From contig JAQVWN010000001.1 in assembly GCA_028749475.1 (NCBI GenBank), positions 79,945 to 143,944 of the forward strand: a stretch of 64,000 bases of DNA, given 5' to 3'. A program made the position numbers and the translations under genes. This document shows positions 13,673 to 57,988 of this stretch, in pieces (within the stretch, counting starts at the first letter, position 1; every line of letters begins with the position of its first letter). Below the pieces are notes generated by a model that was not told the origin of the DNA, searched no databases, and saw only the letters and a program-made list of their open reading frames with translations. This stretch comes from Thomasclavelia sp. (lineage in GTDB: Bacteria > Bacillota_I > Bacilli_A > Erysipelotrichales > Coprobacillaceae).

Positions 13673-15622
13673 ATGTGGATAGATTATCTTAAAACTATTG
13701 TGTTTTTTCTTTTGTTTACGCTGTTTTGTTATTCATTTGGACTAGCGATAACAAAAGAAAATAAAAAACAAGAATCAAAATATCTATTAATTGGCTATTT
13801 TTTGTATTTGTTTCCGATTTCCATCTATGGTGTTATAGTTCAACTATTAGATGCTAGTTATATGATGTTTTTTATTCCATTAGTTCTTTATATAGTTTGT
13901 TTATGTATTTTTATCATTTATCGATTTAAAAAATATAATATTATCTTATTTAAAGATGGAGTGTTAGATTTTCTAAAAAGGTATTGGTTCTTTTTGTTCA
14001 TTATCGGATTTTTTATTGTTTGTATGTTATGTAATGTTGGGAAATTCTGGATTGATAATCTAACAGATGATGCCTACTATCTAGTTAAAGTAGGGTCACT
14101 TCCTTATTCTAGTCATCCATTTGTTACAGATCCGTCAACTGGGCAAATTATTAATGTTAGTTTTTCATATCTATTTAATAGTTGGGAAATTGAAGCATCT
14201 GCATATGCATTTATTTCGACAGCATTACCAACAATATTTATAAGGTTTGGTTTAAGTGCTTTTACAATGCTTATGATTTGCTCTGCAGTTCATAATTTTA
14301 TTTCTATTTTGCTTTCAAAACTAGGAAAAATAAAGGTGAAGGCAGAGACAATTCAATATTTAACGGTCATAATATGTGTTATGTTTTGTACTCTTGATTT
14401 TATTCAAAGTACTGGAATTAAAATAATTCTAGAGGATAATTGGAAAAACACTAATGCTTTATATTTTGGGTCCTCTTTTCTAAGATTGATTTCTCCATTT
14501 ATAATAGGTAGTTTTTTCCTTACCTATGAAAAACTTGGTTTTAAAGAAATATTAATATATTTGATTCTAGGGATGGATTTCTTGTCGAAATCATCTTCGG
14601 CTATTCCATTATTTGTTTTATGCGGATTTGTTTATTTATTGTATTATTTATTTGATAAAAAACATTATATTCTACTTTTTATAATAATATTTGTTTTTAT
14701 TGGAACTAATTTATTATTACCTAATAGTGATGCAATAAATGGATATATGTGGAACAATATTATGATAATGAATTGTTCTTCAATTTTGTTTTATGTAGGC
14801 TATTTATTATTAATAATTTATACATTTATAAAAAAGAATACTTTTTTAACTAAACTTACAATTCTTATTATTAGTTTATCAGTCCTTATGTGCGTTCCTT
14901 ATCTTAATAATATTAACAATTTATTATCAGGAGGATATTTCTTCCCTGTGGCTCGTAATTATTCGACAGTCTTTTATTTACTGGTCGTAGTTGGATTTGT
15001 TTTAATTAGTACAACAATTATTAAATATATAAAGCATAAAACACCTTTATTTATTGCTTTTTGTATAGCAATGAGTTCAATTTCAATTTATACTCAATCT
15101 AAGAATATAATAGGATCAGTCCCTAATGTTGATCTTATTAGATCAATTAGAACCATTTATCATAATCCACAACTTACTCCTGATAGTACTGTAGAAGTAG
15201 GTAGGCATATTAATATCATATCAAAAGATTTAGATGTTCCTTTAAAAGTAGTTACTTTATTTGGTATGACTTTAATAGATGGATATTACACATACCCAGC
15301 ATTAACGTATCGAATATATGCTCCTAATATAATTAATTATACTGCTGCATTTAGAATACATACTGATATAAAAATCATGGGATATAGTTATGAAGACCAA
15401 CAAGTCTTAACGGATTTTTCTCTTAATCCAAATATGGAAAAGTATAAAAAAGTAAAAAATATATTAGATAATAATAAGATGGATTGTATAGTTACAATGT
15501 CAAATACAGCCAAAAAGTATTTTAAAAAACTGGATTATCACCTCTATTCATATATTATTGATAATAATAAATCTGATAAATTTTACATCTATGTAAAAAA
15601 CGATATAATAACTAAAAAATAA
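13673..15622 (+). CDS. Large polytopic membrane protein with a C-terminal soluble domain; candidate GT-C-like extracytoplasmic glycosyltransferase or polymerase
   Basis: 649 aa with more than 10 hydrophobic segments. Acidic-aromatic loop motif NLTDDAYY (DD at nt 14066-14071). About 170 aa non-hydrophobic C-terminus. No family recognised with certainty. Confidence 0.45.
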   Translation: MWIDYLKTIVFFLLFTLFCYSFGLAITKENKKQESKYLLIGYFLYLFPISIYGVIVQLLDASYMMFFIPLVLYIVCLCIFIIYRFKKYNIILFKDGVLDFLKRYWFFLFIIGFFIVCMLCNVGKFWIDNLTDDAYYLVKVGSLPYSSHPFVTDPSTGQIINVSFSYLFNSWEIEASAYAFISTALPTIFIRFGLSAFTMLMICSAVHNFISILLSKLGKIKVKAETIQYLTVIICVMFCTLDFIQSTGIKIILEDNWKNTNALYFGSSFLRLISPFIIGSFFLTYEKLGFKEILIYLILGMDFLSKSSSAIPLFVLCGFVYLLYYLFDKKHYILLFIIIFVFIGTNLLLPNSDAINGYMWNNIMIMNCSSILFYVGYLLLIIYTFIKKNTFLTKLTILIISLSVLMCVPYLNNINNLLSGGYFFPVARNYSTVFYLLVVVGFVLISTTIIKYIKHKTPLFIAFCIAMSSISIYTQSKNIIGSVPNVDLIRSIRTIYHNPQLTPDSTVEVGRHINIISKDLDVPLKVVTLFGMTLIDGYYTYPALTYRIYAPNIINYTAAFRIHTDIKIMGYSYEDQQVLTDFSLNPNMEKYKKVKNILDNNKMDCIVTMSNTAKKYFKKLDYHLYSYIIDNNKSDKFYIYVKNDIITKK

Positions 15623-19966: not shown

Positions 19967-21751
19967 ATGAAAATAAAAAGCGCCAAAAATTCAGTTAAAG
20001 AATTTTTACTAAAGTTAGCTAAAAGACCTGAAACGTATATTATACTTGTGGGAATTATACTTAGATTTATACTAGCGTATAAAGTGGGATTCCATTATTA
20101 TTCAGCACAGGGCTATGATGATAATCTTTTGGCTTCGTATGCTTTTCCTTCACATTGGACAAATCCTTCAATTAATTCTTTGCTTAAGACTATGTCATTC
20201 CCATTACTATTGGATCTGGCTTATGTCTTACATATAGATTACGCATCATTATTATGTATTATTTGGGTTATTACAGCTTTAACTGTATATAAGACATGTT
20301 CCTATATTTCTAATAAGAGAGTTCTAAGCATATTTGCATTTTTATATACTTTGTATTTTCCAACCGCGTTTGAAAGTTGGATGGGTACTAGACTATATAG
20401 AAATGCAATAATTGCTCCATTTACCATTATTCTTATTAGTATATTACTATTAATATTCTTTAAAATTAAGAGAAATGAATATTCAAATAAAGGATTAATA
20501 TGCAATGGTTTATTATTGGGATGTGTATTTTCTTTCTCTTATTATATAAAAGAAGATGGGTTATGGATGTTAGCTGTATTATTATTTTTTATTGTGTGTT
20601 ACTTAGGTTACTTAACATTTAATTTTTTTAAAAAAGAAAAAAATCGTAGAAAATTTATAATTTTTACTATTTCTATATTTATACCATTAATGTTTTTTGG
20701 TACTACTACTATTGCGTATAAACAAGTTAACAAACATTTCTTTGGAGTCGCCGAAGTTGAAACAAGAAATGGTGGCGAATTAGGAAAATATGTTGCCAAT
20801 GTTTATAAAATAGAATCAAATAATCGAGACTATAAACATTGGGCACCAAAGGATGCAATTATAAAGTCTTTTAAAGCATCCAAGACACTTAGTAAATACC
20901 CAAAGTTATTGAATAGTATTCTCCACTCTAGTTGGTACAATGGTAATATTGAAAAAAATCCAATTGAAGGGGACTTTTATACTTGGGTTTTAAGATCATC
21001 GCTATCAGAAACTAAAATATGGAAATCAGAAAAACAAATTAATGATTTGTTTAAGAAAGTAAACTCAGAGTTAAGTGAAGCTTTCAAATCAGGGGAACTA
21101 AAAAAAGATAATAAAATTCAATTGTTTTCTTCTGCAGGTGGAAGAACAATGAAAGAGATATATACATTATTCCCTATAGTTCGAGATTCTTTCGAGGAGG
21201 CTATTGCATTGGATTCTTATGCTCCTGGTTCAATTGTAGGAGAATCATTAGATAAAGAAAATACTGAAGCAACTATGAGGCTTACAAGGACTAATTATTT
21301 AATGGATTATAATTATGATGGTACTTTAGTTAATAGTGAACAAGCAAATAAAGTGATTACTTATATATTTGATATATATAGTGTTTTAAATCCAATATTA
21401 TTTTTTTTAGCTATTATAATGGCGATTTATCAAGTACTACGATTACTAGTGAATTTTAAAAATGTTAAAAGCAATATTTCTAAATGGAGCGATAGCATTA
21501 TAAAAATGCTTATGATATGTGTTTTATTTGGAGTTGGGATAGCTTATGCTTTTTCAATTAGTTGGTTTGATCAATTTTTATTAAATGGAACTAGGCAAAA
21601 CAATTTTTATATTCAAAATTTTTATACAATTGCCCTTCCTGGTATTTTGTTAGTAATATATATGTTAGGACTTGATCTACTGTTTGAAAATGTTAAAAAC
21701 ATTTTTTCAAAATTTCGTAATAACGAGAACAAAACTAAATCTATAGAATAA
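19967..21751 (+). CDS. Polytopic membrane protein, candidate GT-C (ArnT/PMT-like) glycosyltransferase
   Basis: 594 aa. YDDNLL acidic motif in the loop right after TM1, as in GT-C enzymes. Multiple TM segments plus a soluble region of about 200 aa. Follows the GtrB/GtrA pair. Confidence 0.55.
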   Translation: MKIKSAKNSVKEFLLKLAKRPETYIILVGIILRFILAYKVGFHYYSAQGYDDNLLASYAFPSHWTNPSINSLLKTMSFPLLLDLAYVLHIDYASLLCIIWVITALTVYKTCSYISNKRVLSIFAFLYTLYFPTAFESWMGTRLYRNAIIAPFTIILISILLLIFFKIKRNEYSNKGLICNGLLLGCVFSFSYYIKEDGLWMLAVLLFFIVCYLGYLTFNFFKKEKNRRKFIIFTISIFIPLMFFGTTTIAYKQVNKHFFGVAEVETRNGGELGKYVANVYKIESNNRDYKHWAPKDAIIKSFKASKTLSKYPKLLNSILHSSWYNGNIEKNPIEGDFYTWVLRSSLSETKIWKSEKQINDLFKKVNSELSEAFKSGELKKDNKIQLFSSAGGRTMKEIYTLFPIVRDSFEEAIALDSYAPGSIVGESLDKENTEATMRLTRTNYLMDYNYDGTLVNSEQANKVITYIFDIYSVLNPILFFLAIIMAIYQVLRLLVNFKNVKSNISKWSDSIIKMLMICVLFGVGIAYAFSISWFDQFLLNGTRQNNFYIQNFYTIALPGILLVIYMLGLDLLFENVKNIFSKFRNNENKTKSIE

Positions 21752-26142: not shown

Positions 26143-28983
26143 ATGAAAAAAATCATTTCACTTACAGTTGCATTGTTAATGATATTTTCAATGACAACTT
26201 ATATAAATGCTACTGAAGATGATTCTTCAGGTGATACTAACGTATCTAATTTAGAGACAACTACTAATAGTAATGGGGAAACTGTAGTTGAAGTTCCTTT
26301 CTACGACGATAATGGAAATCTATACTATGAAGAAGTAGGAGATGGATCAGTAGATGAAGGTATCGCTAGTGCGAGAAGTGATGCTTTTAGTAGTGGAAGT
26401 ATACTAGTGAATTTTAATTACAATATTTCTTCTAGTATTACTACGTCTTATACTAATACAGTTTCAGGAGCGTCTGGATATTTACATGGCCAAGCAAATG
26501 CTGATGCTGTTTATCTTGGAACTGAAAATGGAAAAGTTAAATTTATGCAATCAGGAGTAATTGGACTTGTAGATGCATCTAAAGTTCAACTTGTTTCTGC
26601 ATTGAAATATTATGAAAGCTATTATATTTACGAAGGTAGTGGTTTTTACCATTATATTTGTACTGATGTAAATAATGCACCTGCTAGTAAAATACTGATA
26701 AGTAATAGTAAACCTGCTTATATAACTGCAGGTACTAAATACTATAGTTATGATGGTCACTATTTCTATACTAATTATGATACGATGACTACAAACTATA
26801 AGAGTAATAATCGTAATAATGCAGTAAATAAAAGTAGTCCTTTTTATAACTACTTCCAATATCTTTCAATGAGAAGTACAACTAGTTATTCTGCTTCTCA
26901 ACTTAATTCATATATTACTAAAGTTAAGGGAACTACAACTCAAATGTCTAACTCTGGTAGTAGTTTTATCAACTATCAAAATAAATATGGTGTTAATGCC
27001 TTATTATCTTTTGCAGTAGCTTGCAATGAAAGTGCCTATGGAACAAGCAACATTTCTAAAACTAAAAACAATCTATTTGGACTTAGTGTCTACGATAGTA
27101 ACACTGGAGCAGGTACTACCTATAATAGTGTTGATTCCTGTATTAAAGACTTTATGGAAAGATGGATGTCAACAGGATATTTAGATACAAGTGATTGGCG
27201 TTACAACGGAGCTAACCTTGGAGATAAAGGTGGAGGTTGTAATGTTCAATATGCTAGTGGATCTACTTGGGGAGAAACAGCTGCTAGTATCGCCCTTAGA
27301 ATAGATAACTATCTAGGCGGAAATGAAAAAAGTAAATATACGATTGCTATCAGTGATACCTTAAATAGTGGATATAGTAATGTCTCCATTACTTCTTCAC
27401 CTGGAGGAAGTAATCTTTATAGTCAGGGTAAACATCCTAACTATCCAGTAATAGTGATAGGATCTTCAGGTAATTACTATAAAATTCAAAGTGATAGTGT
27501 ATTAAATTCTGCAGGTACTGCTATCGATAAAACAGGAACCAGTTATAATTACAGTAAAGATGTTGGTTATGTAAGTAAAAACACCTTTACCATTGCCTAT
27601 TCAGGTACTTATACAGAATCTACTACTCCAACTCTTACATATCAAGGATATACTGCTGGTAGCTGGTTAACATCAGTACAAGCAGGAGAAATTGCTGGAA
27701 CAACCGGGCAATCTAAAAAATTAGAGGCCTTTAAAATTAATTTAGATACTGGCTCATATGGTGGAGGAATTAATTATCAAGCGCATGTATCAAATGTCGG
27801 TTGGCAGACTGCTAGGAGCAGCGGCCAAACAGCTGGTATTGAAGGTTCTAATCAAATAGAAGCAATTAAAATAAGTTTAACAGGTAATATATCTAATTAT
27901 TATGATATATATTATCGAGTTCATACTTCAAAAATTGGATGGCTAGGTTGGACCAAGAATGGAGCATCAGCAGGGACTACAAGTTTTGGATTGTCTGCTG
28001 AAGCGATAGAAGTAAAACTAGTGTCCAAAGGTGCTAGTGCACCTGGAAGTACTGATAATTCTTATTATTCAAATGATATCAATTATTCAACGCATGTTTC
28101 GGGCATTGGTTGGCAATCCAATGTTAGTAATGGAACAACAGCTGGAACAACAGGTCAATCAAAAGCAGTTGAAGCATTTAAAGTATCGATGAATAGTTAC
28201 TACAAAGGCAATGTTGTGTATAAAGCCCATGTTCAAAATGTTGGTTGGCAAAGTGAAACTTCGAATGGAAATGTAGCCGGAACAACAGGAAAGTCTCTTA
28301 GAGTAGAAGCTTTTACCATTAATTTAACAGATGAATTAGAAGAGAATTACGATGTTTACTATCGAGCATATGTTCAAAACTATGGATGGCTTGATTGGTC
28401 TTCTAATGGCGCTAAAGCCGGAACAGTTGGATATGGTTACCGAGTTGAAGCAATGCAAGTTAAGATAGTAAATAAAGGAGCAGCGGCACCTGGTGCTACA
28501 ACTAATCCATTCAAAGTAAGTAAAATAACATACTCAACTCACGTTCAAACTATTGGTTGGCAAAGCAGTGCTGTAGAAGGACAAACTTCAGGTACTACTG
28601 GTAAAAGTTATAGGCTTGAAGGTATAAAAATTAACTTAAGTAATCTTTCAGAAATAAATGAAGCAGGTGGAATATCTTATTCAACTCATGTTCAAAATTA
28701 TGGTTGGCAAAATTATGTTAGTAATGGAGCCCTTTCTGGAACTACTGGTAAGTCTTTAAGGCTTGAAGCTATAAAAATCAAACTTACTGGTGACATTGCA
28801 AATGACTATGATGTTTATTATCGTGTTCATGCTCAAAACTATGGATGGATGGGCTGGACTAAAAATAATGAAATGGCTGGAACTAGTGGCTATGGGTATC
28901 GTTTAGAAGCTATTGAAATTCAAGTTGTTAAAAAAGGTGAAACATCACCAGGAAATACAAGTAATTCATATAAAATTAAATAA
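26143..28983 (+). CDS. Secreted peptidoglycan hydrolase: GH73 N-acetylglucosaminidase domain plus 9 C-terminal ChW (clostridial hydrophobic W) repeats
   Basis: Signal peptide MKKIISLTVALLMIFSMTTYINA. GH73-like LSFAVACNESAYGTS...NNLFGL motif. Nine repeats of about 45 aa with the pattern Y-x-x-H-V-Q-N-x-G-W ... G-T-[TS]-G ... R-[LV]-E-A-[IF]-x-[IV]. Confidence 0.8.
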   Translation: MKKIISLTVALLMIFSMTTYINATEDDSSGDTNVSNLETTTNSNGETVVEVPFYDDNGNLYYEEVGDGSVDEGIASARSDAFSSGSILVNFNYNISSSITTSYTNTVSGASGYLHGQANADAVYLGTENGKVKFMQSGVIGLVDASKVQLVSALKYYESYYIYEGSGFYHYICTDVNNAPASKILISNSKPAYITAGTKYYSYDGHYFYTNYDTMTTNYKSNNRNNAVNKSSPFYNYFQYLSMRSTTSYSASQLNSYITKVKGTTTQMSNSGSSFINYQNKYGVNALLSFAVACNESAYGTSNISKTKNNLFGLSVYDSNTGAGTTYNSVDSCIKDFMERWMSTGYLDTSDWRYNGANLGDKGGGCNVQYASGSTWGETAASIALRIDNYLGGNEKSKYTIAISDTLNSGYSNVSITSSPGGSNLYSQGKHPNYPVIVIGSSGNYYKIQSDSVLNSAGTAIDKTGTSYNYSKDVGYVSKNTFTIAYSGTYTESTTPTLTYQGYTAGSWLTSVQAGEIAGTTGQSKKLEAFKINLDTGSYGGGINYQAHVSNVGWQTARSSGQTAGIEGSNQIEAIKISLTGNISNYYDIYYRVHTSKIGWLGWTKNGASAGTTSFGLSAEAIEVKLVSKGASAPGSTDNSYYSNDINYSTHVSGIGWQSNVSNGTTAGTTGQSKAVEAFKVSMNSYYKGNVVYKAHVQNVGWQSETSNGNVAGTTGKSLRVEAFTINLTDELEENYDVYYRAYVQNYGWLDWSSNGAKAGTVGYGYRVEAMQVKIVNKGAAAPGATTNPFKVSKITYSTHVQTIGWQSSAVEGQTSGTTGKSYRLEGIKINLSNLSEINEAGGISYSTHVQNYGWQNYVSNGALSGTTGKSLRLEAIKIKLTGDIANDYDVYYRVHAQNYGWMGWTKNNEMAGTSGYGYRLEAIEIQVVKKGETSPGNTSNSYKIK
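27634..28980 (+). repeat. Array of 9 ChW repeat modules arranged as 3 triplets (coding)
   Basis: Each triplet is two GWQ-type modules followed by one GW[LM]GW-type module, and ends in V-x-K-G-x-x-A/S-P-G. Confidence 0.8.
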
Positions 28984-33634: not shown

Positions 33635-34336
33635 ATGTTAAAAAAAATAACTAGCTTATTATTAGCTTTATTAATGGTAATAGGATTAACTGCATGTAGT
33701 AGTGGTACAAGTAAATCAAAAAAGACTGGTAAGACTGATAATGGAATTACCATTAAAGGTGTTAAAGACTTTCAAGAATCAACTGGTCAAATTAAGTATT
33801 TTACAATTGAAGGTAAGAAGTTTGCAATTCCAGAAACTGTTGGAGAATATGCTAACTATCTTGAACAATTAGGAACTGTTACTTTAGGTAGTGATGATAA
33901 AGACATTCATTCTGATACAGTTAAAGCTGGTGGACTTTCATCATTAACAGAATATTTTACTGTTAAAATAGGTGATAATGATGTTAGGTTCTGGGTATCA
34001 TATAAAAATAATACAAAGAAAGAACTTACAATAGCTGAATGTTCAATCACTCAATTACAATTCAAATATGATGTTTATGCTGAACAAGATTATGAAAAAG
34101 CCTGCAAGTCAGTTGTGTTTTATGCAACTAGTACAGATGGGGATACAGTTGAAGTCCCTATGGATGGTAAAATAGGTTACGTTAAGGTGCTTAAAATGTT
34201 AGGAGACGCTTCTCAAGTAACTGATGGACGAATAACTTATAAAGATAGTTTAGGATATACAAATATCTGGGATTGCTGTAATGAAAATAGAACAGGGATC
34301 TTTAGAGGGGTTACAATTAAATATCCATCTAAATAG
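33635..34336 (+). CDS. Lipoprotein of unknown function
   Basis: Signal peptide with lipobox LLMVIGLTAC-SSG. AAAGGAG RBS. No recognisable catalytic motif. Confidence 0.75.
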   Translation: MLKKITSLLLALLMVIGLTACSSGTSKSKKTGKTDNGITIKGVKDFQESTGQIKYFTIEGKKFAIPETVGEYANYLEQLGTVTLGSDDKDIHSDTVKAGGLSSLTEYFTVKIGDNDVRFWVSYKNNTKKELTIAECSITQLQFKYDVYAEQDYEKACKSVVFYATSTDGDTVEVPMDGKIGYVKVLKMLGDASQVTDGRITYKDSLGYTNIWDCCNENRTGIFRGVTIKYPSK

Positions 34337-34342
34337 ATTGAT

Positions 34343-34369
34343 AGACAGAGATTATTCTCTGTCTTTTTT
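34343..34369 (+). terminator. Intrinsic terminator
   Basis: AGACAGAG-attatt-CTCTGTCT followed by T5. Confidence 0.85.
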
Positions 34370-34506
34370 ATTTCTTATTCATTGTTGCTCCATCAACGTT
34401 ATGTTTTTAATTGAATATTATTGAAAAATATATGAAAATTTTCCAAAAACATGTATCCGCTTACATATGTTGATAATGCTTACTATTTTCATATTTATGA
34501 AAATAG

Positions 34507-34535
34507 TTGACAAGTCAACTATAAGGGTAAATAAT
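34507..34535 (+). promoter_or_regulatory. Promoter of the long leader upstream of the ChW cysteine protease gene
   Basis: Consensus TTGACA at 34507-34512. AATAAT/TAAATA -10 candidates 15-17 nt downstream. About 185 nt of leader before the ATG at 34728. Confidence 0.55.
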
Positions 34536-34559
34536 GAAGATGTAGAAGAGAAGTAAAGA

Positions 34560-34649
34560 AGTTACAAGATAATAGCCAAAATTATCGAAAGATAATGACG
34601 GAAAGCTATAGGGCCTGTAAAATGGCAGCCAGTTGCATATAATTGTATG
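34560..34649 (+). promoter_or_regulatory. Candidate c-di-GMP-I (GEMM-I)-like riboswitch aptamer
   Basis: AGCCAAA-ATTATC-GAAA-GATAAT-GACGGAAAGC-TATAGGGCC...GGCAGCCAGTTGC. The GAAA-capped 6-bp hairpin is flanked by CAAA and GACG-N-AAAGC, at the same spacing as my recollection of the Vc2 core GGCAAA-CCAUUC-GAAA-GAGUGG-GACGCAAAGCC...GGUAGC..GUUACC. Confidence 0.45.
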
Positions 34650-34674
34650 GGGCACTGGGGGTGTCCTTATTTTT
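34650..34674 (+). terminator. Leader terminator (putative riboswitch expression platform)
   Basis: GGGCAC-tgggg-GTGTCC (one G-U pair), followed by TTATTTTT, 53 nt before the ATG. Confidence 0.55.
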
Positions 34675-34727
34675 ATGTTCATTCGAAGTTCGAACTATTA
34701 TCGCAACTATCAAAAGGAGCGATAATT

Positions 34728-37454
34728 ATGAAAACATCCCTAAGAAAAGTACTCAGTGCAGTACTAGTATCAATGATGATACTTTCAATTAGCACTATTG
34801 GTGTCAACGCTGAGGGCGATGACACAACATCTGAAGATTATATCAAAGGTCATGAATTGACTGAAGAAGAAATCAAAGAACAACAAAAAAATGAACCTCA
34901 AAACTTACCTACTGTATCAGTTCCTGATGAGAAAACTGTTCAATCATCAAGAAGCAGTGATACATATGTACCAAGTAGTACGTATGCATCAAGTTATGAT
35001 GCAAGAAACTATGGTTTAGTTACTTCTGTAAAAAACCAAGGTAGTTCAGGTACATGTTGGGCATATGCTACAACTGCAGCTATGGAAACAGCTGCTGTTA
35101 AAGCTGGCCTTTCAAACAATGGTATTAATCTTTCAGAACAACATTTAGCCTATTTCTATTACAACAGAGTTGATAATGGATTAGGTAATACAAATAGTGA
35201 TTACAATTCAGTTCAAAGTGGTAAGAACTATTTAAGCAATGGTGGAAACACTAGAATGGTATTAAATGCATTAAGTGGTCATCAAGGTATGGCTAATGAA
35301 TCAACTGCATCAACTACTAATTCATACAAAACATATTCATCAAGTCTTTGTTACAAAGATCAAGTTCAAATGACTAATGGATATAATGTATGTCCTGGTT
35401 ATGTAAAAGATAATATTGATTCAGTAAAATCTGCAATATCAAAATATGGTAGTGCAGCAGCTATGTTTACATGGAATTCAAGTTATATGAATTACTCAAC
35501 TGCTGCCTATAGTTATCCTAGTACTTCAACTAACCATGCAATCCAAATTATTGGTTGGAATGATAACTATAGTAAATCAAACTTCAATAGTAATTCAGGA
35601 GTAACAAGCAATGGTGCTTGGATTTGTAAAAACTCATGGGGAACTAGTTGGGGAAAAAGTGGATATTTCTATATTTCATATCAAGATAAATCATTATCAA
35701 ATGTTGTATCTTACCAAGCAGGTAATGCTAATGCATATGACTATGAATATTATTATGATGGAACTGGTTATTTAGGTACACAATATATTCAAGCTGGTAA
35801 ATCAGCTGCTAATATTTATACAGTCAATGGAAATTCAACTGGTGAAACATTAAAAGCTGTTAACGTTGGATTCGCTAGTTCAAATGTTCAATATAGTATT
35901 CAAGCTTATGCTAATATTACAAATGTTTCTGATCCTACAAGTGGAACACCAATGTTTAGTACACCAGTTACAGGAACTACAACATTCTCAGGATTTTATA
36001 ACATTGCAGTAAACACAAATGCCATAATGCAAAAAGGAACTAAATATTCTATTGTAGTTACAGTAGAAGAAGGAACTAGTTTCTATTCAGATAAATCATA
36101 CAGTTATTCATGGACATCAGGAAACAATGCAACTGCATACAATCAAAGTTTCTTCCAAAATGGCAATGGTTGGTATGATTATAAAACATACAATGATTGT
36201 AGTTTAAGAATTAAAGCCTACACAAATAAAAACTCATTTACTATTCCTAGTTCAGCAGTTCAAATTGGTTCTAATAATACTGCTGATCATAAATTAGGAA
36301 CTAACGTTGCAGTTAATATTGATTCAAGCAAAGTTCAATCTGGATCAACATTTAAAGTAAATGTATCTAAAGGTTCTTCAAAAGTCCTTACTAATAATAC
36401 TTATTCATCAAATACAAGTTATACTTTTACTACTCCATCAACTGGTACTTATGATGTTAGTGTAAGTGCAGCTGATACCTATGGTAATACAGCTAATACA
36501 AACAGCACTTACCAAATTACTTCAAATGGATATGTTCCAACAATATCTTATCGTGGACATGTTCAAAATATTGGTTGGCAAGCATATGTTTCAAATGGAG
36601 CAACTGCTGGTACAATGGGAAAATCTTTAAGAGTAGAAGCCTTCAATATGAATATATCTAATACTGGATATGCTGGAAATCTTGAATATTGTTCTCATGT
36701 TCAAAACATTGGATGGCAAAGTTATGTAAGTAATGGTGCAATGTCCGGAACAAGTGGTAAATCATTTAGAGTTGAAGCTATGAAGATAAGACTTACTGGT
36801 GAAGTGGCTAATCATTATGATGTATACTATAGAGTCTATGCTCAAAACATCGGTTGGATGGGATGGGCTAAAGATGGTGAACAAGCAGGTACTGCTGGTT
36901 ATAGTTACCGTCTTGAAGCTATCCAAGTAAAACTTGTTGAAAAGAATGATACAGTAGCTCTTGCAAATTGTGCAACAACTACTGAAGCATTTAAACAAAG
37001 TCATCTTGCATATCAAACACATGTTCAAAATGTTGGTTGGCAAGGAAAAGTAAAAGAAGGTTTAATGTCAGGAACAAGTGGCAAATCACTTAGACTTGAA
37101 GGAATAAAAATTAATCTAGAAAATGTTTCAGAAGAAGGAAATATTGAGTATTCAACTCATGTTCAAAACATCGGTTGGCAAGGATATGCAAAAAATGGTG
37201 GAATGTCAGGAACTAGCGGTAAGTCACTTAGACTTGAGGCTATAAAGATTCGTTTGACAGGGGAAATGGCAAATACTTATGACATCTACTATTGTGTCCA
37301 TGCTCAAAACTTTGGTTGGATGGGATGGGCAAAAAATGGTGCTTCTGCAGGTACTGCTGGTTATGGTTACCGTTTAGAGGCTATCAAGATTGTCCTAGTT
37401 AAGAAAGGAGAAGCTGCTCCCGGTTCAACTATTAATTCCTTTAAACAAAAATAA
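34728..37454 (+). CDS. Secreted papain-family (C1A) cysteine protease with a central beta-rich region and 6 C-terminal ChW repeats
   Basis: Signal peptide MKTSLRKVLSAVLVSMMILSISTIGVNA. Catalytic motifs QGSSGTCWAYA (Cys codon 35055-35057), NHAIQIIGWNDN and KNSWGTSWGKSGYFYISY. AAAGGAG RBS. The ORF-track start at 34647 lies inside the leader terminator. Confidence 0.85.
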   Translation: MKTSLRKVLSAVLVSMMILSISTIGVNAEGDDTTSEDYIKGHELTEEEIKEQQKNEPQNLPTVSVPDEKTVQSSRSSDTYVPSSTYASSYDARNYGLVTSVKNQGSSGTCWAYATTAAMETAAVKAGLSNNGINLSEQHLAYFYYNRVDNGLGNTNSDYNSVQSGKNYLSNGGNTRMVLNALSGHQGMANESTASTTNSYKTYSSSLCYKDQVQMTNGYNVCPGYVKDNIDSVKSAISKYGSAAAMFTWNSSYMNYSTAAYSYPSTSTNHAIQIIGWNDNYSKSNFNSNSGVTSNGAWICKNSWGTSWGKSGYFYISYQDKSLSNVVSYQAGNANAYDYEYYYDGTGYLGTQYIQAGKSAANIYTVNGNSTGETLKAVNVGFASSNVQYSIQAYANITNVSDPTSGTPMFSTPVTGTTTFSGFYNIAVNTNAIMQKGTKYSIVVTVEEGTSFYSDKSYSYSWTSGNNATAYNQSFFQNGNGWYDYKTYNDCSLRIKAYTNKNSFTIPSSAVQIGSNNTADHKLGTNVAVNIDSSKVQSGSTFKVNVSKGSSKVLTNNTYSSNTSYTFTTPSTGTYDVSVSAADTYGNTANTNSTYQITSNGYVPTISYRGHVQNIGWQAYVSNGATAGTMGKSLRVEAFNMNISNTGYAGNLEYCSHVQNIGWQSYVSNGAMSGTSGKSFRVEAMKIRLTGEVANHYDVYYRVYAQNIGWMGWAKDGEQAGTAGYSYRLEAIQVKLVEKNDTVALANCATTTEAFKQSHLAYQTHVQNVGWQGKVKEGLMSGTSGKSLRLEGIKINLENVSEEGNIEYSTHVQNIGWQGYAKNGGMSGTSGKSLRLEAIKIRLTGEMANTYDIYYCVHAQNFGWMGWAKNGASAGTAGYGYRLEAIKIVLVKKGEAAPGSTINSFKQK
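36543..37451 (+). repeat. Array of 6 ChW repeat modules arranged as 2 triplets (coding)
   Basis: Same GWQ, GWQ, GWMGW triplet order as in the GH73 protein. The last triplet is, by my rough visual alignment, about 70-75% identical in protein to the last triplet of the 26143-28983 product. Confidence 0.8.
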
Positions 37455-37465
37455 TATTTTGTTTG

Positions 37466-37498
37466 TAGAGGTGCATGAATAATGCATCTCTATTTTTA
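37466..37498 (+). terminator. Intrinsic terminator
   Basis: TAGAGGTGCAT-gaata-ATGCATCTCTA (one G-U pair) followed by a T-run. Confidence 0.85.
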
Positions 37499-37557
37499 TT
37501 TTTTCTTGTTTAAGCAAATAGTTATCTATAATTAAATGATTATGATAATATAGGTTT

Positions 37558-41571: not shown

Positions 41572-43050
41572 ATGAAATGTGAAAAGTGTGGACGAGAAAT
41601 AGCTGATGATATGAGGTTTTGTCCAGAGTGCGGAACACCAGTTCCAGTTAAATCTTATTGCCCCAAATGTGGTAATGAAATAAAACCAGGCGATCAGTTT
41701 TGTGAAAAATGCGGAACGTATGTTGGAGGACAACAAAATTTTCAAAACCAAAATCCAACCCCAAATCAAAATCAAAACTACAATCAACAACCATATAATA
41801 ATTATGGAAATTATTCTAATAGTTATAATCAATATGGCTCTAACCCTTATGGAAGTAATCAATACGGTTCTAACCAATATGGAAATAATCAATATGGTCC
41901 TAATCCCTACGGACCAGTAAATAGCTATAATAACCAAAATATGTATCAACCACCAATTAAAAAGGTTGATCCTAAATTAAACCATGAAGCAATCAAAAAT
42001 GATAAGTATAAAGGATATTGGCGTAAGCCAATAATTTGGATTATTTCTGGTTGTATTTTAGCTTTAAGTTTCTTTGCTTATTCTTTTATGGCTAGTAATC
42101 CAATTACTCATGAAAATGCCACATTAAATATTACTAGTAGTGAAACTACTCAAGCAGTCCAATCAAATATAAATAATAGTGGATTATCTTTTATTAAAGG
42201 AAATAGTATTTATTATGTTACTAATGCAACTTTATATAAAGCTGATAATATTGATAAAGGCTTTAATGGCGAAGGAGTAACTAAATTAGCTAAAAATGTA
42301 ACTGGTTATTTATATGCTGATGATAATTATGTCTATTATACTGATTCATCTAATAACTATATTCAACAAGATTTAAAGACTAAAAGTATTAATACTATTT
42401 TAAAAGATGTGTTTTATGTTCAAAGAATCGATAACAAAATATATTATCAATTAGATTCTGATGATGAATCATTACATGTTTATGATTTAGATAGTAAAGA
42501 AGATAAAGCTCTAAATAAAGAACATACTTATCAAACATATATCGATAAAGATAACTCTAAAATATATTATATTAAAGGAAATACCGAAACTGAGAAAGAT
42601 GATTTATGTGTTATTAATACTGATGGTAGTGAACATAAAGTACTAGTAAGTAATGTTAAAGCTACAGCTCTATTTGTAAATGAAAATAAATTATACTTTG
42701 CAAACAGTAAAGGAGTATGTACTTTAGATACAACTAATCTAACAGAAAATATGGAATCAACAGTTGTAACTAAAGAAGAAAATATCTATTCAATAAATCA
42801 ATATAAAGATGGTTATGTATTTAGTTCAGCAAGTAATTTTGGTGTTCAATATAAATCATATGATAATAAAGATAAAGATACTTTCTTTAGTAGTGAATAT
42901 GTATCATCTGTTGAAGTATTAGGAGATGCTTTATATATTAATACTGCAACTAGTGATTCAACAGGTAATTTATATTTTGTAAAAGGTAGTAAATATTGTG
43001 AAGTGGGATCAAATGAAACATCAAGTTATAGTTATGATGAAGATGAATAA
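41572..43050 (+). CDS. Double zinc-ribbon / N-Q-Y-rich disordered linker / single TM / extracytoplasmic beta-propeller-like (DUF5050-like) protein
   Basis: CxxC...CxxC twice (CEKCG..CPECG and CPKCG..CEKCG). About 75 aa N/Q/Y/G/P-rich segment. TM IIWIISGCILALSFFAYSFMA. Then repeated [ND]xx[IVL]YY...L...D blades. Confidence 0.75.
   Translation: MKCEKCGREIADDMRFCPECGTPVPVKSYCPKCGNEIKPGDQFCEKCGTYVGGQQNFQNQNPTPNQNQNYNQQPYNNYGNYSNSYNQYGSNPYGSNQYGSNQYGNNQYGPNPYGPVNSYNNQNMYQPPIKKVDPKLNHEAIKNDKYKGYWRKPIIWIISGCILALSFFAYSFMASNPITHENATLNITSSETTQAVQSNINNSGLSFIKGNSIYYVTNATLYKADNIDKGFNGEGVTKLAKNVTGYLYADDNYVYYTDSSNNYIQQDLKTKSINTILKDVFYVQRIDNKIYYQLDSDDESLHVYDLDSKEDKALNKEHTYQTYIDKDNSKIYYIKGNTETEKDDLCVINTDGSEHKVLVSNVKATALFVNENKLYFANSKGVCTLDTTNLTENMESTVVTKEENIYSINQYKDGYVFSSASNFGVQYKSYDNKDKDTFFSSEYVSSVEVLGDALYINTATSDSTGNLYFVKGSKYCEVGSNETSSYSYDEDE
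41827..41916 (+). repeat. Six tandem 15-nt (pentapeptide N-[QP]-Y-G-x) coding repeats
   Basis: NQYGS NPYGS NQYGS NQYGN NQYGP NPYGP, read directly from the sequence in frame. Confidence 0.9.
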
Positions 43051-46224: not shown

Positions 46225-46505
46225 TCAAGATAAATACTTTGATAGGAATTAGTAGATATTACGTAACTTGTAGAGAGGTTCTGGTAGGTGAAAAGAACTA
46301 GTTAAAAGATATTGAACTCATCCTTGAGTGGAGCGCTGAACAAAGTAGGTGGCTACGGTAGCATCCGTTATAATGCAAAAGTATGTACTTTATAAGCGTA
46401 CTTTATGAGACTGGTAAGGTGACTTATCAGTGAACTAAGGTGGAACCACGTGATTTACTCTCGTCCTTTTAATGATTATTCATTTTAAGCATGAGAGTTT
46501 TTTAT
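46225..46505 (+). promoter_or_regulatory. T-box leader (tRNA-Leu, specifier CUC) with terminator
   Basis: Stem I AGAGAG plus GGTAGGTGAAAAG distal motif. Specifier context GAA-CUC-A (CUC at 46317-46319). T-box sequence AAGGTGGAACCACG at 46437-46450. Terminator ACTCTCGT...ATGAGAGT followed by a T-run (46457-46505). Confidence 0.85.
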
Positions 46506-56137: not shown

Positions 56138-56168
56138 CGTAATACGTTATTGTTCTTTTTATTTTTTG
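56126..56168 (+). terminator. Strong intrinsic terminator ending the leu-ilv operon
   Basis: 15-bp perfect stem AAAGAACAATAACGT-aat-ACGTTATTGTTCTTT followed by TTTATTTTTT. The 5' arm includes the ilvB stop codon. Confidence 0.9.
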
Positions 56169-56197
56169 TGCTAAAATTTATGTTAAAGGGGAAATAT

Positions 56198-57988
56198 ATG
56201 AAGAAAATATTAAGTGTGTGCGTAGTATTTTTTCTAGCTTTTACATGTTTTTCTAGTGTTAGTGTGAAGGCAGAAGATAGTAGTGGGGCTTCACTACTAG
56301 ACAAAAGTAAAAAAGCCGAGTGGACTGATTATGATAAGGGGATTGCTAAAGTAAATCTTTCAGTTCCATCTGAATCAAAAAAGAATGAAGTAGATGTAGT
56401 TCTAGTTATCGATAAATCAATGGGTAGTGCTAATTCTGGATTCCCAGAAAAAGCAGCAACTATGCTTGATGAATTAGCTAAAAGAACAGATATGGATTGT
56501 AGAGTAGGAGTAGTAAGTTTTGATTCTACAGCATATGATATGTATAACTTAGCTACTAAAAAACAAGTTGGTTATACAGGTTTAGTTACTCTTGATGATA
56601 CAAACAAAGCTGGTTTAAAAGCAGCTTGTAATTATAATCTTAAAGATTCTACAACTAATCCAGAAACTCCTTATTTAGGCGGAAGTAACCTTTCATCTGC
56701 TTTAAAGATGGCTAATAAAATGCTTGGAGAAGGAACTGCTAATAGTTCAAATAAAATGATGGTAGTGTTATCAGATTTAGCTACTTATAGTTATGATGAT
56801 GATGTTACTGTTAATGGTAAAACTTATAAAGATGTACCAAGTTCATTAAATATTCAAGGATATGGTACATACTTAGAAGTAAATAGTTATTTCAGTACTT
56901 GGAAAGCAGATAATAAATATTATAAATCGTTCCAAGAATTAAAAGAGGCTTATGATTCTGGAACAATGCAAGCTAATCCTTCATGGAATAATAATATTCC
57001 ATATCGTTATGATAATCCTACTAAATATAACAGTTTATATGCTCCGGATTTAAATGCAGCTGATGTTACTGCTTCAGTACAAGCTGGAGGAAGTAATTGT
57101 TGTCCAGTTTCTAATGGATATGTTGATGGTTTCTCAAAGGCCATTGCTTATTCATATGAAGAATTTAAAAAAGCATATGATAATGATTACTCAATTAATA
57201 TAATTGGTAATGTTCGTGATATTGCTAACTTATATAATGTATATGCAGGACCTATTTTAAATACTTTCCTTGATTATTTAATAGATGACTTAGATGCTAA
57301 TTATTATAATTCTAAACTTGATTCAAGTGCTTCTCAAACAATAGTTGATAAGATTGAAGTTCAAATTGTCAATGTTATGGATAAATCATTAATAACAGAT
57401 TATATTGGAAAGAAATTTGATCTTTATAATCTAAATAATGAAATATCATCATCTCCATTCGAACTTACAGTTGGTGATGTAGCTGTTCCTGGAGTATGGG
57501 ATGCAAGTACTAAGACTATGACATTTGCAAATGGCGATTATGTCTTAAAATATGATCCTGATGATCCTAATGGAGAAATGTACACTCTTCAAATAAATGT
57601 TCCAATTGCTAAAAGTGCTGCTGTAAAATTATCTTATTATCTTCTATTAGATCAGTCACTAATAGAAACTTATGATGTGGAAGATCTTCCTACAAATGTA
57701 AGTGCAGATATTATTTATTGGTCTTCACTTGATGATAGTAGCGATCCTGATGCAGCTACAACTTCTCAGTTTGAAGTACCAATTTTACAATGGCAAAAGA
57801 AGAAGAAAGATGAACCTACACCTACACCTGTACCACCTACTGAAAACAAAATAAATAATCCAACAAGTAGTACAGTAGTAAATACAGGTGATAGTAATAG
57901 TAATAGAATTAATGGATACTTTGTTTCATTATTACTAGCTGGAGGAGTAATCATCTTAAATCAAATTAGAAGAATCAAAAAAATATAA
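56198..57988 (+). CDS. Secreted vWA-domain surface protein with Pro/Thr linker and a sorting-signal-like C-terminus
   Basis: Signal peptide MKKILSVCVVFFLAFTCFSSVSVKA. VDVVLVIDKSMGS MIDAS-like motif. PTPTPVPP linker. C-terminal VVNTGD + hydrophobic helix + RRIKKI. ATG 56198 follows AAAGGGGA. Confidence 0.75.
   Translation: MKKILSVCVVFFLAFTCFSSVSVKAEDSSGASLLDKSKKAEWTDYDKGIAKVNLSVPSESKKNEVDVVLVIDKSMGSANSGFPEKAATMLDELAKRTDMDCRVGVVSFDSTAYDMYNLATKKQVGYTGLVTLDDTNKAGLKAACNYNLKDSTTNPETPYLGGSNLSSALKMANKMLGEGTANSSNKMMVVLSDLATYSYDDDVTVNGKTYKDVPSSLNIQGYGTYLEVNSYFSTWKADNKYYKSFQELKEAYDSGTMQANPSWNNNIPYRYDNPTKYNSLYAPDLNAADVTASVQAGGSNCCPVSNGYVDGFSKAIAYSYEEFKKAYDNDYSINIIGNVRDIANLYNVYAGPILNTFLDYLIDDLDANYYNSKLDSSASQTIVDKIEVQIVNVMDKSLITDYIGKKFDLYNLNNEISSSPFELTVGDVAVPGVWDASTKTMTFANGDYVLKYDPDDPNGEMYTLQINVPIAKSAAVKLSYYLLLDQSLIETYDVEDLPTNVSADIIYWSSLDDSSDPDAATTSQFEVPILQWQKKKKDEPTPTPVPPTENKINNPTSSTVVNTGDSNSNRINGYFVSLLLAGGVIILNQIRRIKKI

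Follow-up and report, generated by a model that had tools for sequence, protein, structure and literature searches.

A 64,000-nucleotide (nt) stretch of contig JAQVWN010000001.1 from Thomasclavelia sp. (hereafter the window, numbered along its forward strand) carries, ahead of a gene encoding a surface cysteine protease, a leader RNA that contains an aptamer of the class I cyclic di-GMP (c-di-GMP) riboswitches, also called GEMM-I. We describe here a computational dissection of this leader, of the gene that it precedes, and of the distribution of the unit that the two form. Taken as a whole, the reading that we favor, in which a class I c-di-GMP aptamer acts as an OFF switch that terminates transcription ahead of the protease gene, has in our estimate a probability of about 0.6. 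The parts of this reading differ in strength, the identity of the aptamer being far firmer than the direction in which it would switch.

The entire 64-kilobase (kb) window was searched with all 4227 Rfam families at their curated thresholds, and two matches were obtained in total, one to the c-di-GMP-I family (RF01051) and the other to an unrelated T-box. The RF01051 match, on the forward strand at 34565-34640, reaches 60.5 bits where the gathering score is 35, covers positions 1-87 of the 87 in the model, and has an E value of 2.4e-9 in the search of the window against the 4227 families and of 1.1e-11 for the region alone. Because this full-length match lies 25 bits above the gathering score, we regard it as nearly certain that 34565-34640 is a genuine class I aptamer. 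An initial annotation of the stretch, made without tools, had proposed a GEMM-I-like riboswitch and had named a covariance-model scan as a check; the scan, run on both the window and the region, upholds the proposal, with RF01051 above its gathering score over the full model and no competing riboswitch family. A permissive Rfam scan of 34480-34760 at E <= 10 returned no family beyond RF01051, and c-di-GMP-II (RF01786) gave no match in this interval even at that cutoff. Two other matches of its clan (CL00126) overlapped the RF01051 match, had lower scores, and were suppressed. This clan holds the variant families c-di-GMP-I-GGC and c-di-GMP-I-UAU. Assignment to one of these binding-site variants was rejected, since RF01051 outscores both clan matches and the triplet found here is G-A-C.

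The core of the aptamer, AGCCAAA-AUUAUC-GAAA-GAUAAU-GACGGAAAGC, occupies 34574-34606 and is followed by GGGCCUGUAAAAUGGCAGCCAGUUGC at 34611-34636. When the sequence was re-read, the strands listed in the initial annotation, AGCCAAA-ATTATC-GAAA-GATAAT and those that follow, were all found at the positions given for them. Helix P2 is formed by 34581-34586 and 34591-34596, is capped by a GAAA loop of the GNRA type (34587-34590), and is flanked by CCAAA and GACGG. Helix P3 is built from three segments, 34604-34607/34631-34634, 34611-34612/34629-34630, and 34613-34615/34624-34626, around a loop at 34616-34623. The candidate receptor region of P3 for the GAAA loop reads CCUGUA..AAUGG and closes straight into this 8-nt loop (CCUGUAAAAUGG), as opposed to an internal loop of the form CCUAAG...UAUGG. 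Distal P3 is short: where the RF01051 model carries a 13-nt insert, the aligned sequence has 2 nt. Its measured length of 20 nt belongs to the most frequent class, 17-23 nt, among 101 natural aptamers that share the altered junction pair described below.

The residues expected to hold the ligand are all present. In the model alignment, the ligand contacts G20, A47, and C92 of Vc2, the Vibrio cholerae reference aptamer, correspond to G34575, A34602, and C34636, and the Watson-Crick pair that joins P2 and P3 (Vc2 C44-G83) corresponds to C34599, within GAC, and G34628, within the AG bulge of CAGCC. Vc2 numbers were placed on the model columns by means of the Vc2 sequence. G20, A47, and C92 are established ligand contacts and the interhelical pair is universally conserved (PMC4744006, PMC5888326), the roles of the contact residues also being given in PMC6140456. 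Because the equivalents of all of these positions are unchanged, the aptamer is, by its predicted contacts, of the canonical G-A-C type, and the same conservation makes c-di-GMP its very probable ligand.

Two pairs close the junction, C34576-G34601 and C34577-G34600, the first of which is flipped relative to the consensus G-C. The initial annotation had pointed to GCC and ACGG as two deviations from the Vc2 core and had correctly read them as possibly compensatory: the alignment reveals them to be the two halves of one pair, model positions 12-37, changed from G-C to C-G, with G34575 directly 5' of it unaltered. A metagenome scan with the pattern AGCCAAA-N6-GNRA-N6-GACGGAAAGC recovered the flipped pair at no fewer than 120 loci. 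These resemble GEMM-I aptamers of the usual kind, in which the GNRA loop varies and the two sides of the P2 stem covary. On viral contigs the flipped form is represented by 8 distinct sequences, as against 55 with the consensus pair. We interpret the flip as a compensatory change and as a minority yet well-established natural variant. As a separate observation, cores of the GEMM-I type are common on IMG/VR viral contigs (L148-L226), where 72 loci have the consensus pair and 7 the flipped pair, and several of these contigs (L153, L169, L216) carry two closely spaced copies.

Beyond the aptamer lies a predicted expression platform. A terminator scan identified a hairpin at 34649-34667 with eight pairs, four of them G-C, and a 3-nt loop, followed by TATTTTTAT; its U-run ends about 53 nt ahead of the ATG, in agreement with the terminator that the initial annotation had placed at this distance. 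Terminator-like sites number two in 1.4 kb, compared with 0.3 expected from shuffled sequence. The stem has no overlap with the aptamer, and the hairpin is present in the minimum free energy (MFE) structure of the full-length leader and whenever the aptamer is enforced. A candidate antiterminator (Table 1) would pair the 3' strand of the aptamer with the 5' arm of this terminator; an inner hairpin, CAUAU/GUAUG (34636-34640/34645-34649), stacks on the antiterminator helix, and the resulting structure is mutually exclusive with the base of P3, with the C92 equivalent, and with the terminator. In simulated folding of the growing transcript, the antiterminator is the MFE structure for transcript ends 34659-34664, when 34654-34658 is already available and the 3' arm of the terminator is not, and at end 34659 its ensemble probability is 0.86, that of the P3 base being less than 0.01. 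For the full leader, enforcing the aptamer together with the terminator gives -39.3 kcal/mol and enforcing the antiterminator gives -37.5 kcal/mol, so that the two states are nearly isoenergetic.

These structures suggest the following course of events. Transcription would begin near 34542, and at low c-di-GMP the 3' strand of the aptamer (34629-34636) would pair with 34651-34658, in the terminator's 5' arm and loop; with the antiterminator formed, RNA polymerase would read through and the protease would be made. At high c-di-GMP, the ligand would be clamped by G34575, A34602, and C34636, locking P3 and the junction and making the 3' strand unavailable, whereupon the terminator at 34649-34667 with its U-run could form and transcription would stop ahead of the gene. 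It is because the ligand is expected to lock 34629-34636 in the aptamer, and thereby to free the 5' arm of the terminator, that an OFF switch is predicted, and the folding models make OFF control by transcription termination probable. In physiological terms, cells with little c-di-GMP would produce the protease, and sessile or biofilm cells would keep it silent. The functional class I riboswitches of Clostridioides difficile are OFF switches that work through termination, among them one upstream of the protease ZmpI (PMC6200980, PMC6366702).

Several observations weigh against an OFF switch, or against a working switch altogether. When the leader is folded to equilibrium without ligand, the terminator has a probability of 0.99; since the terminator wins under these conditions, the OFF model needs kinetic, co-transcriptional trapping in an antiterminator of about 11 pairs. 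Positions 34650, 34652, and 34653 in the 5' arm of the terminator are left free when the antiterminator forms and could be the starting point of strand invasion. Comparison is limited to the one other known copy of the leader, on a Logan contig (SRR31061296, L017), which differs solely by a T-to-C change at 34638 (L017 2911); this single-nucleotide polymorphism (SNP) lies just 3' of the C92 equivalent, converts a U-A pair of the inner hairpin into a C-A mismatch, and is too little to test any structure. The P1 helix is outside the RF01051 model, and the best duplex that the flanks can form, UACAA/UUGUA, is a weak one (5 bp, -3.0 kcal/mol). Additionally, the base of P3 is interrupted by an asymmetric internal loop of 3 nt, and one of its pairs is marked as non-standard in the model alignment. 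GEMM-I is absent upstream of five homologues of the protease that are 29-40% identical to it (L018-L021, L143). Regular-expression searches, and Pfam searches of about 45 open reading frames (ORFs), found no GGDEF, EAL, HD-GYP, or PilZ domain in the 64-kb window, a result that applies to the window alone. Finally, the direction of class I regulation is not to be extrapolated between species (PMC6366702).

The equilibrium preference for the terminator is also what a default-off switch would look like, and an arrangement in which c-di-GMP turns the gene on, through read-through or translation as reported for the Bc2 riboswitch of Bacillus thuringiensis, would use the very same aptamer. Class I riboswitches do vary in direction with organism and context (PMC6366702), and one of those in C. 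difficile, Cdi-1-1, is positively regulated (PMC6200980). Many metagenomic aptamers with the flipped pair (e.g. L028, L050) use their own 3' strand as the 5' arm of a terminator, an arrangement that gives an ON switch. In the present leader, however, the terminator stem stands outside the aptamer, so that ligand cannot sequester a terminator arm; the sole sizeable alternative pairing is that between the aptamer 3' strand and the terminator 5' arm, which ligand would remove, and folding disclosed nothing that ligand could stabilise so as to keep the terminator from forming. An ON switch is thus improbable, the arrangement of the platform favoring OFF control.

A decayed or non-responsive relic, with the terminator serving as a constitutive attenuator or being regulated in some other way, would account for the weak P1 and the irregular base of P3, and it would fit the lack of visible c-di-GMP enzymes in the window and the lack of the cassette in close relatives; there is precedent, too, in that no regulation was found for 5 of 16 predicted C. 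difficile c-di-GMP riboswitches (PMC6200980). Yet the score exceeds the curated threshold by 25 bits with every ligand-contact nucleotide and the interhelical pair intact, the aptamer has been kept in a second, independent assembly with one SNP (the T-to-C change at 34638), and a complementary antiterminator occurs exactly where a working platform needs one. We consider a relic somewhat less likely than an ON switch. Least likely of all, to the point of being very doubtful, is that specificity has been altered or broadened, for instance toward 3'3'-cyclic GMP-AMP (cGAMP), by the flipped pair at 34576-34601, which adjoins the G20 equivalent beside the G-alpha pocket. The Geobacter cGAMP aptamer Gs1761 probably shares the flipped-pair motif ...CGGAAAGC. 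Dual binding, of c-di-GMP and of cGAMP, is documented for certain natural aptamers in the family (PMC6140456). The documented determinant of the cGAMP-sensing GEMM-Ib group is nevertheless an A in place of G at Vc2 position 20, and Vc2, which has G20, binds c-di-GMP with picomolar affinity and cGAMP only at about 10 µM (PMC6140456). Position 34575 is G and not A, and a GEMM-Ib identity was rejected on this ground; the flip combined with a retained G20 is widespread among ordinary-looking GEMM-I aptamers, and RF01051 outscores the variant families of the clan. The suggestion in the initial annotation of a GEMM-Ib-like change of specificity accordingly finds no footing in the equivalents of G20 (34575), A47, and C92, all of which are unchanged. 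The OFF switch responding to c-di-GMP remains the reading that we carry forward.

The gene under this predicted control encodes a protein of 908 amino acids (aa). Its start codon is the ATG at 34728, not 34729, and is preceded by a Shine-Dalgarno sequence, GGAG, at 34716-34719. A longer ORF of 935 aa, beginning at an ATG at 34647 within the terminator hairpin, was rejected as spurious; the start at 34728 has a ribosome-binding site (RBS), yields 908 aa, and agrees with the gene call on the public contig. Reading of the translation revealed a signal peptide with the cleavage motif ...VNA/EG, and Pfam identified a Peptidase_C1 domain (aa 88-321, E = 2.4e-23), a Lectin_like domain (aa 341-499, E = 9.5e-16), and six ChW repeats; an immunoglobulin (Ig)-like region is also present. 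The motifs QGSSGTCW, NHAIQIIGW, and KNSWG in the Peptidase_C1 domain conserve the catalytic Cys, His, and Asn. The best match among solved structures is 4ci7/4d59, a cell-surface cysteine protease of C. difficile (E = 3e-28), and extends across the protease and lectin-like domains. We take this protein to be Cwp84. Pfam detected no CWB2 repeats in the window protein, the C-terminus of which consists of the six ChW repeats. Non-covalent anchoring of proteins on the surface of a Gram-positive cell has been demonstrated for a ChW-containing domain (PMC6700490). The papain-like protease with ChW repeats in the initial annotation is upheld by Pfam. Because a strong terminator directly follows the gene, the unit is, as far as its sequence can tell, monocistronic, and the riboswitch would control one gene.

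Table 1. Features of the riboswitch-protease unit and its borders (window coordinates).
Feature	Position	Strand	Basis
Upstream-gene intrinsic terminator	34343-34364	+	9-pair stem, 4 G-C, then TTTTTTATTT
Promoter-like site, sigma-70 type	34507-34535	+	TTGACA-17 nt-AATAAT; 11/12 match, best in region
c-di-GMP-I (GEMM-I) aptamer	34565-34640	+	RF01051, 60.5 bits vs 35, model 1-87
Predicted antiterminator	34629-34658	+	CCAGUU (34629-34634) pairs with G34651 and ACUGG (34654-34658)
Expression-platform intrinsic terminator	34649-34676	+	Stem GGGGCACU/GGUGUCCU (34649-34656/34660-34667), loop GGG, U-run UAUUUUUAU
RBS-adjacent hairpin	34697-34726	+	AUUAUCGC/GCGAUAAU; dG -11.7 kcal/mol (34685-34740), z = -3.1 vs shuffles
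Regulated gene, 908-aa secreted surface cysteine protease	34728-37454	+	Pfam, structure match
Post-gene intrinsic terminator	37465-37503	+	12-pair stem, then TTTTATTTTT; shuffles 0.0

The promoter-like site consists of TTGACA at 34507-34512 and AATAAT at 34530-34535 with a 17-nt spacer, and it falls between the terminator at 34343-34364 and the aptamer. Sites that match at 11/12 positions or better occur five times in the window, compared with 6.2 +/- 2.2 times in shuffled sequence, so that the match is not significant alone and its position is its sole support. Transcription from this site would start near 34542 and produce a leader of about 186 nt. Of the TTGACA promoter and leader of some 185 nt in the initial annotation, the site and the leader length stand, and the match itself proves no rarer than in shuffles. 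The terminator at 34343-34364 follows a gene for a 233-aa putative lipoprotein (33635-34336) and is predicted to insulate the protease unit from upstream transcription.

A further hairpin adjoins the RBS: GGAG occupies the 3' side of its loop, with the start codon coming next, and the structure may modulate translation or stabilise the mRNA. The leader holds five copies of GATAAT/ATTATC (at 34568, 34581, 34591, 34697, and 34721), where the frequency over the whole window predicts about 0.37 per 190 nt; two of these copies form P2 and two form the RBS hairpin (34697-34704/34719-34726). In transcripts that read through, strands of the aptamer could exchange pairing partners with those of the RBS hairpin. 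At 34683-34695, the stretch that separates this hairpin from the terminator holds a tandem palindrome, TTCGAAGTTCGAA (two TTCGAA), which forms a small hairpin in the MFE structure.

The unit is situated at the 3' end of a cell-envelope glycopolymer cluster of about 33 kb, all of it on one strand (141-33543, +). This cluster encodes an IspD-like protein, many GT2 glycosyltransferases, Glf, a Wzx-like flippase, a TagGH-like ABC-2 exporter, and the rhamnose synthesis proteins RmlABCD, together with a sulfatase-family membrane protein that may be a lipoteichoic acid synthase and a ChW glucosaminidase. The second ChW protein of the window (26143-28983, +; 946 aa) has a glucosaminidase domain of the autolysin type and nine ChW repeats, its upstream region yielding no riboswitch. 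ChW appears to be the general surface anchor of this organism. No Pfam match was obtained for the proteins of 594 aa (19967-21751) and 649 aa (13673-15622).

The T-box mentioned above is a leader (RF00230, 138.6 bits vs 93) at 46230-46471 (+), directly upstream of a leuA/ilv operon for branched-chain amino acids (46472 to about 56137); the same layout of T-box and leuA is found in two related species (L145 16673-16927, L146 15374-15625). Two further reading frames on the forward strand encode sizeable proteins that are sparsely annotated. One (41572-43050; 492 aa) encodes zinc ribbons, DUF5050, and a low-complexity linker rich in N, Q, and Y, and lies in the same position in relatives; the other (56150-57988; 612 aa) has a weak VWA match only.

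The host is, from its WhiA, which is 100% identical to a protein of a Thomasclavelia sp. metagenome-assembled genome, an uncultured relative of Thomasclavelia in the order Erysipelotrichales, its next WhiA relatives, which include Tannockella kyphosi, being 71-74% identical. The exact protease was found on one other contig only, the Logan contig named above, the leader of which matches RF01051 at 59.7 bits. Neither GEMM-I nor the protease is present at the syntenic HAD-TrxB-RapZ-WhiA loci of three related species (L145-L147). The RapZ-WhiA block is kept in all three, and HAD and TrxB also in L145 and L147; upstream of the block, in the regions compared with window 34337-37557 (L145 5880-6455, L147 4667-5334, L146), the relatives have DUF1801, phosphotransferase system and GH38 genes, or a capsule locus. 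A search with the N-terminus of the protease against contigs of representative genomes gave only short, unrelated matches in Chitinophagaceae. The association of riboswitch and protease is, on this sampling of loci, lineage-specific. The protease cassette and the upstream glycopolymer cluster are variable regions that may have been acquired. A literature search on c-di-GMP in Erysipelotrichaceae and C. ramosum returned nothing useful.

In our view the element is real yet unremarkable, one more instance of a very well characterised class of regulator, and the kind of gene that it precedes makes a plausible target; the finding is not surprising, and it does not challenge current understanding. 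What it adds is an extension of the pattern in which a class I c-di-GMP riboswitch precedes a surface-remodelling protease, both to the Erysipelotrichales and to a ChW-anchored cysteine protease. If validated, it would offer a practical handle on c-di-GMP signalling in gut Erysipelotrichales, and biosensor work would gain a compact natural aptamer, 76 nt long, in which P3 is minimal. A more speculative proposal, which we hold to be unlikely as it stands, is that the cassette, which looks like a recent acquisition in that close relatives lack it, forms a direct RNA link from c-di-GMP to surface proteolysis in gut-associated Erysipelotrichales, so that c-di-GMP would decide the shedding or processing of wall-bound proteins. 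In a bolder version, the flipped pair and the minimal P3 may confer relaxed or different dinucleotide specificity.

Among known aptamers, Vc2 (PDB 3irw, 3mxh) shares with the present one a 6-bp P2 with a GAAA cap and the junction strands CAAA and GAC-G-N-AAAGC. The pair G21-C46 of Vc2 is C-G here, P1 is weak, and the distal P3 is far shorter: it stops at an 8-nt loop and does not run on beyond an internal-loop tetraloop receptor. The equivalents of G20, A47, C92, and C44-G83 are common to both (PMC4744006, PMC6140456), whereas Vc2 does not act through transcription termination (PMC6366702). Aptamers of the GEMM-Ib group, such as Geobacter Gs1761, resemble the present aptamer in overall fold and fall within its Rfam family or clan; they carry A at the G20 equivalent, in contrast to G34575.

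For the protein, the closest comparison is the C. difficile protease of 4ci7/4d59, with which the window protein shares the C1 and lectin-like domains and the catalytic Cys, His, and Asn motifs at a modest level of sequence similarity. Cwp84, an S-layer-processing protease, carries CWB2 repeats where the window protein has six ChW repeats, and cwp84 is not known to be under the control of a c-di-GMP riboswitch. For the regulatory arrangement, the nearest relatives are two C. difficile elements, Cdi-1-12, which precedes zmpI (the PPEP-1 metalloprotease), and Cd1/Cdi-1-3, which precedes flgB. Each is likewise a class I aptamer located in the 5' leader of a Firmicute gene, and each is an OFF switch that works by premature termination of transcription; the target of Cdi-1-12 is a secreted, surface-remodelling protease (PMC6200980, PMC6366702). 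The target here is instead a papain-type (C1) cysteine protease with lectin-like and ChW domains rather than a zinc metalloprotease, and the host belongs to the Erysipelotrichales and not to the Peptostreptococcaceae, with switch direction and function being predictions in the present case. As predicted, the leader has in common with the C. difficile elements an aptamer, a separate terminator, and an antiterminator that makes use of the 3' strand of the aptamer.

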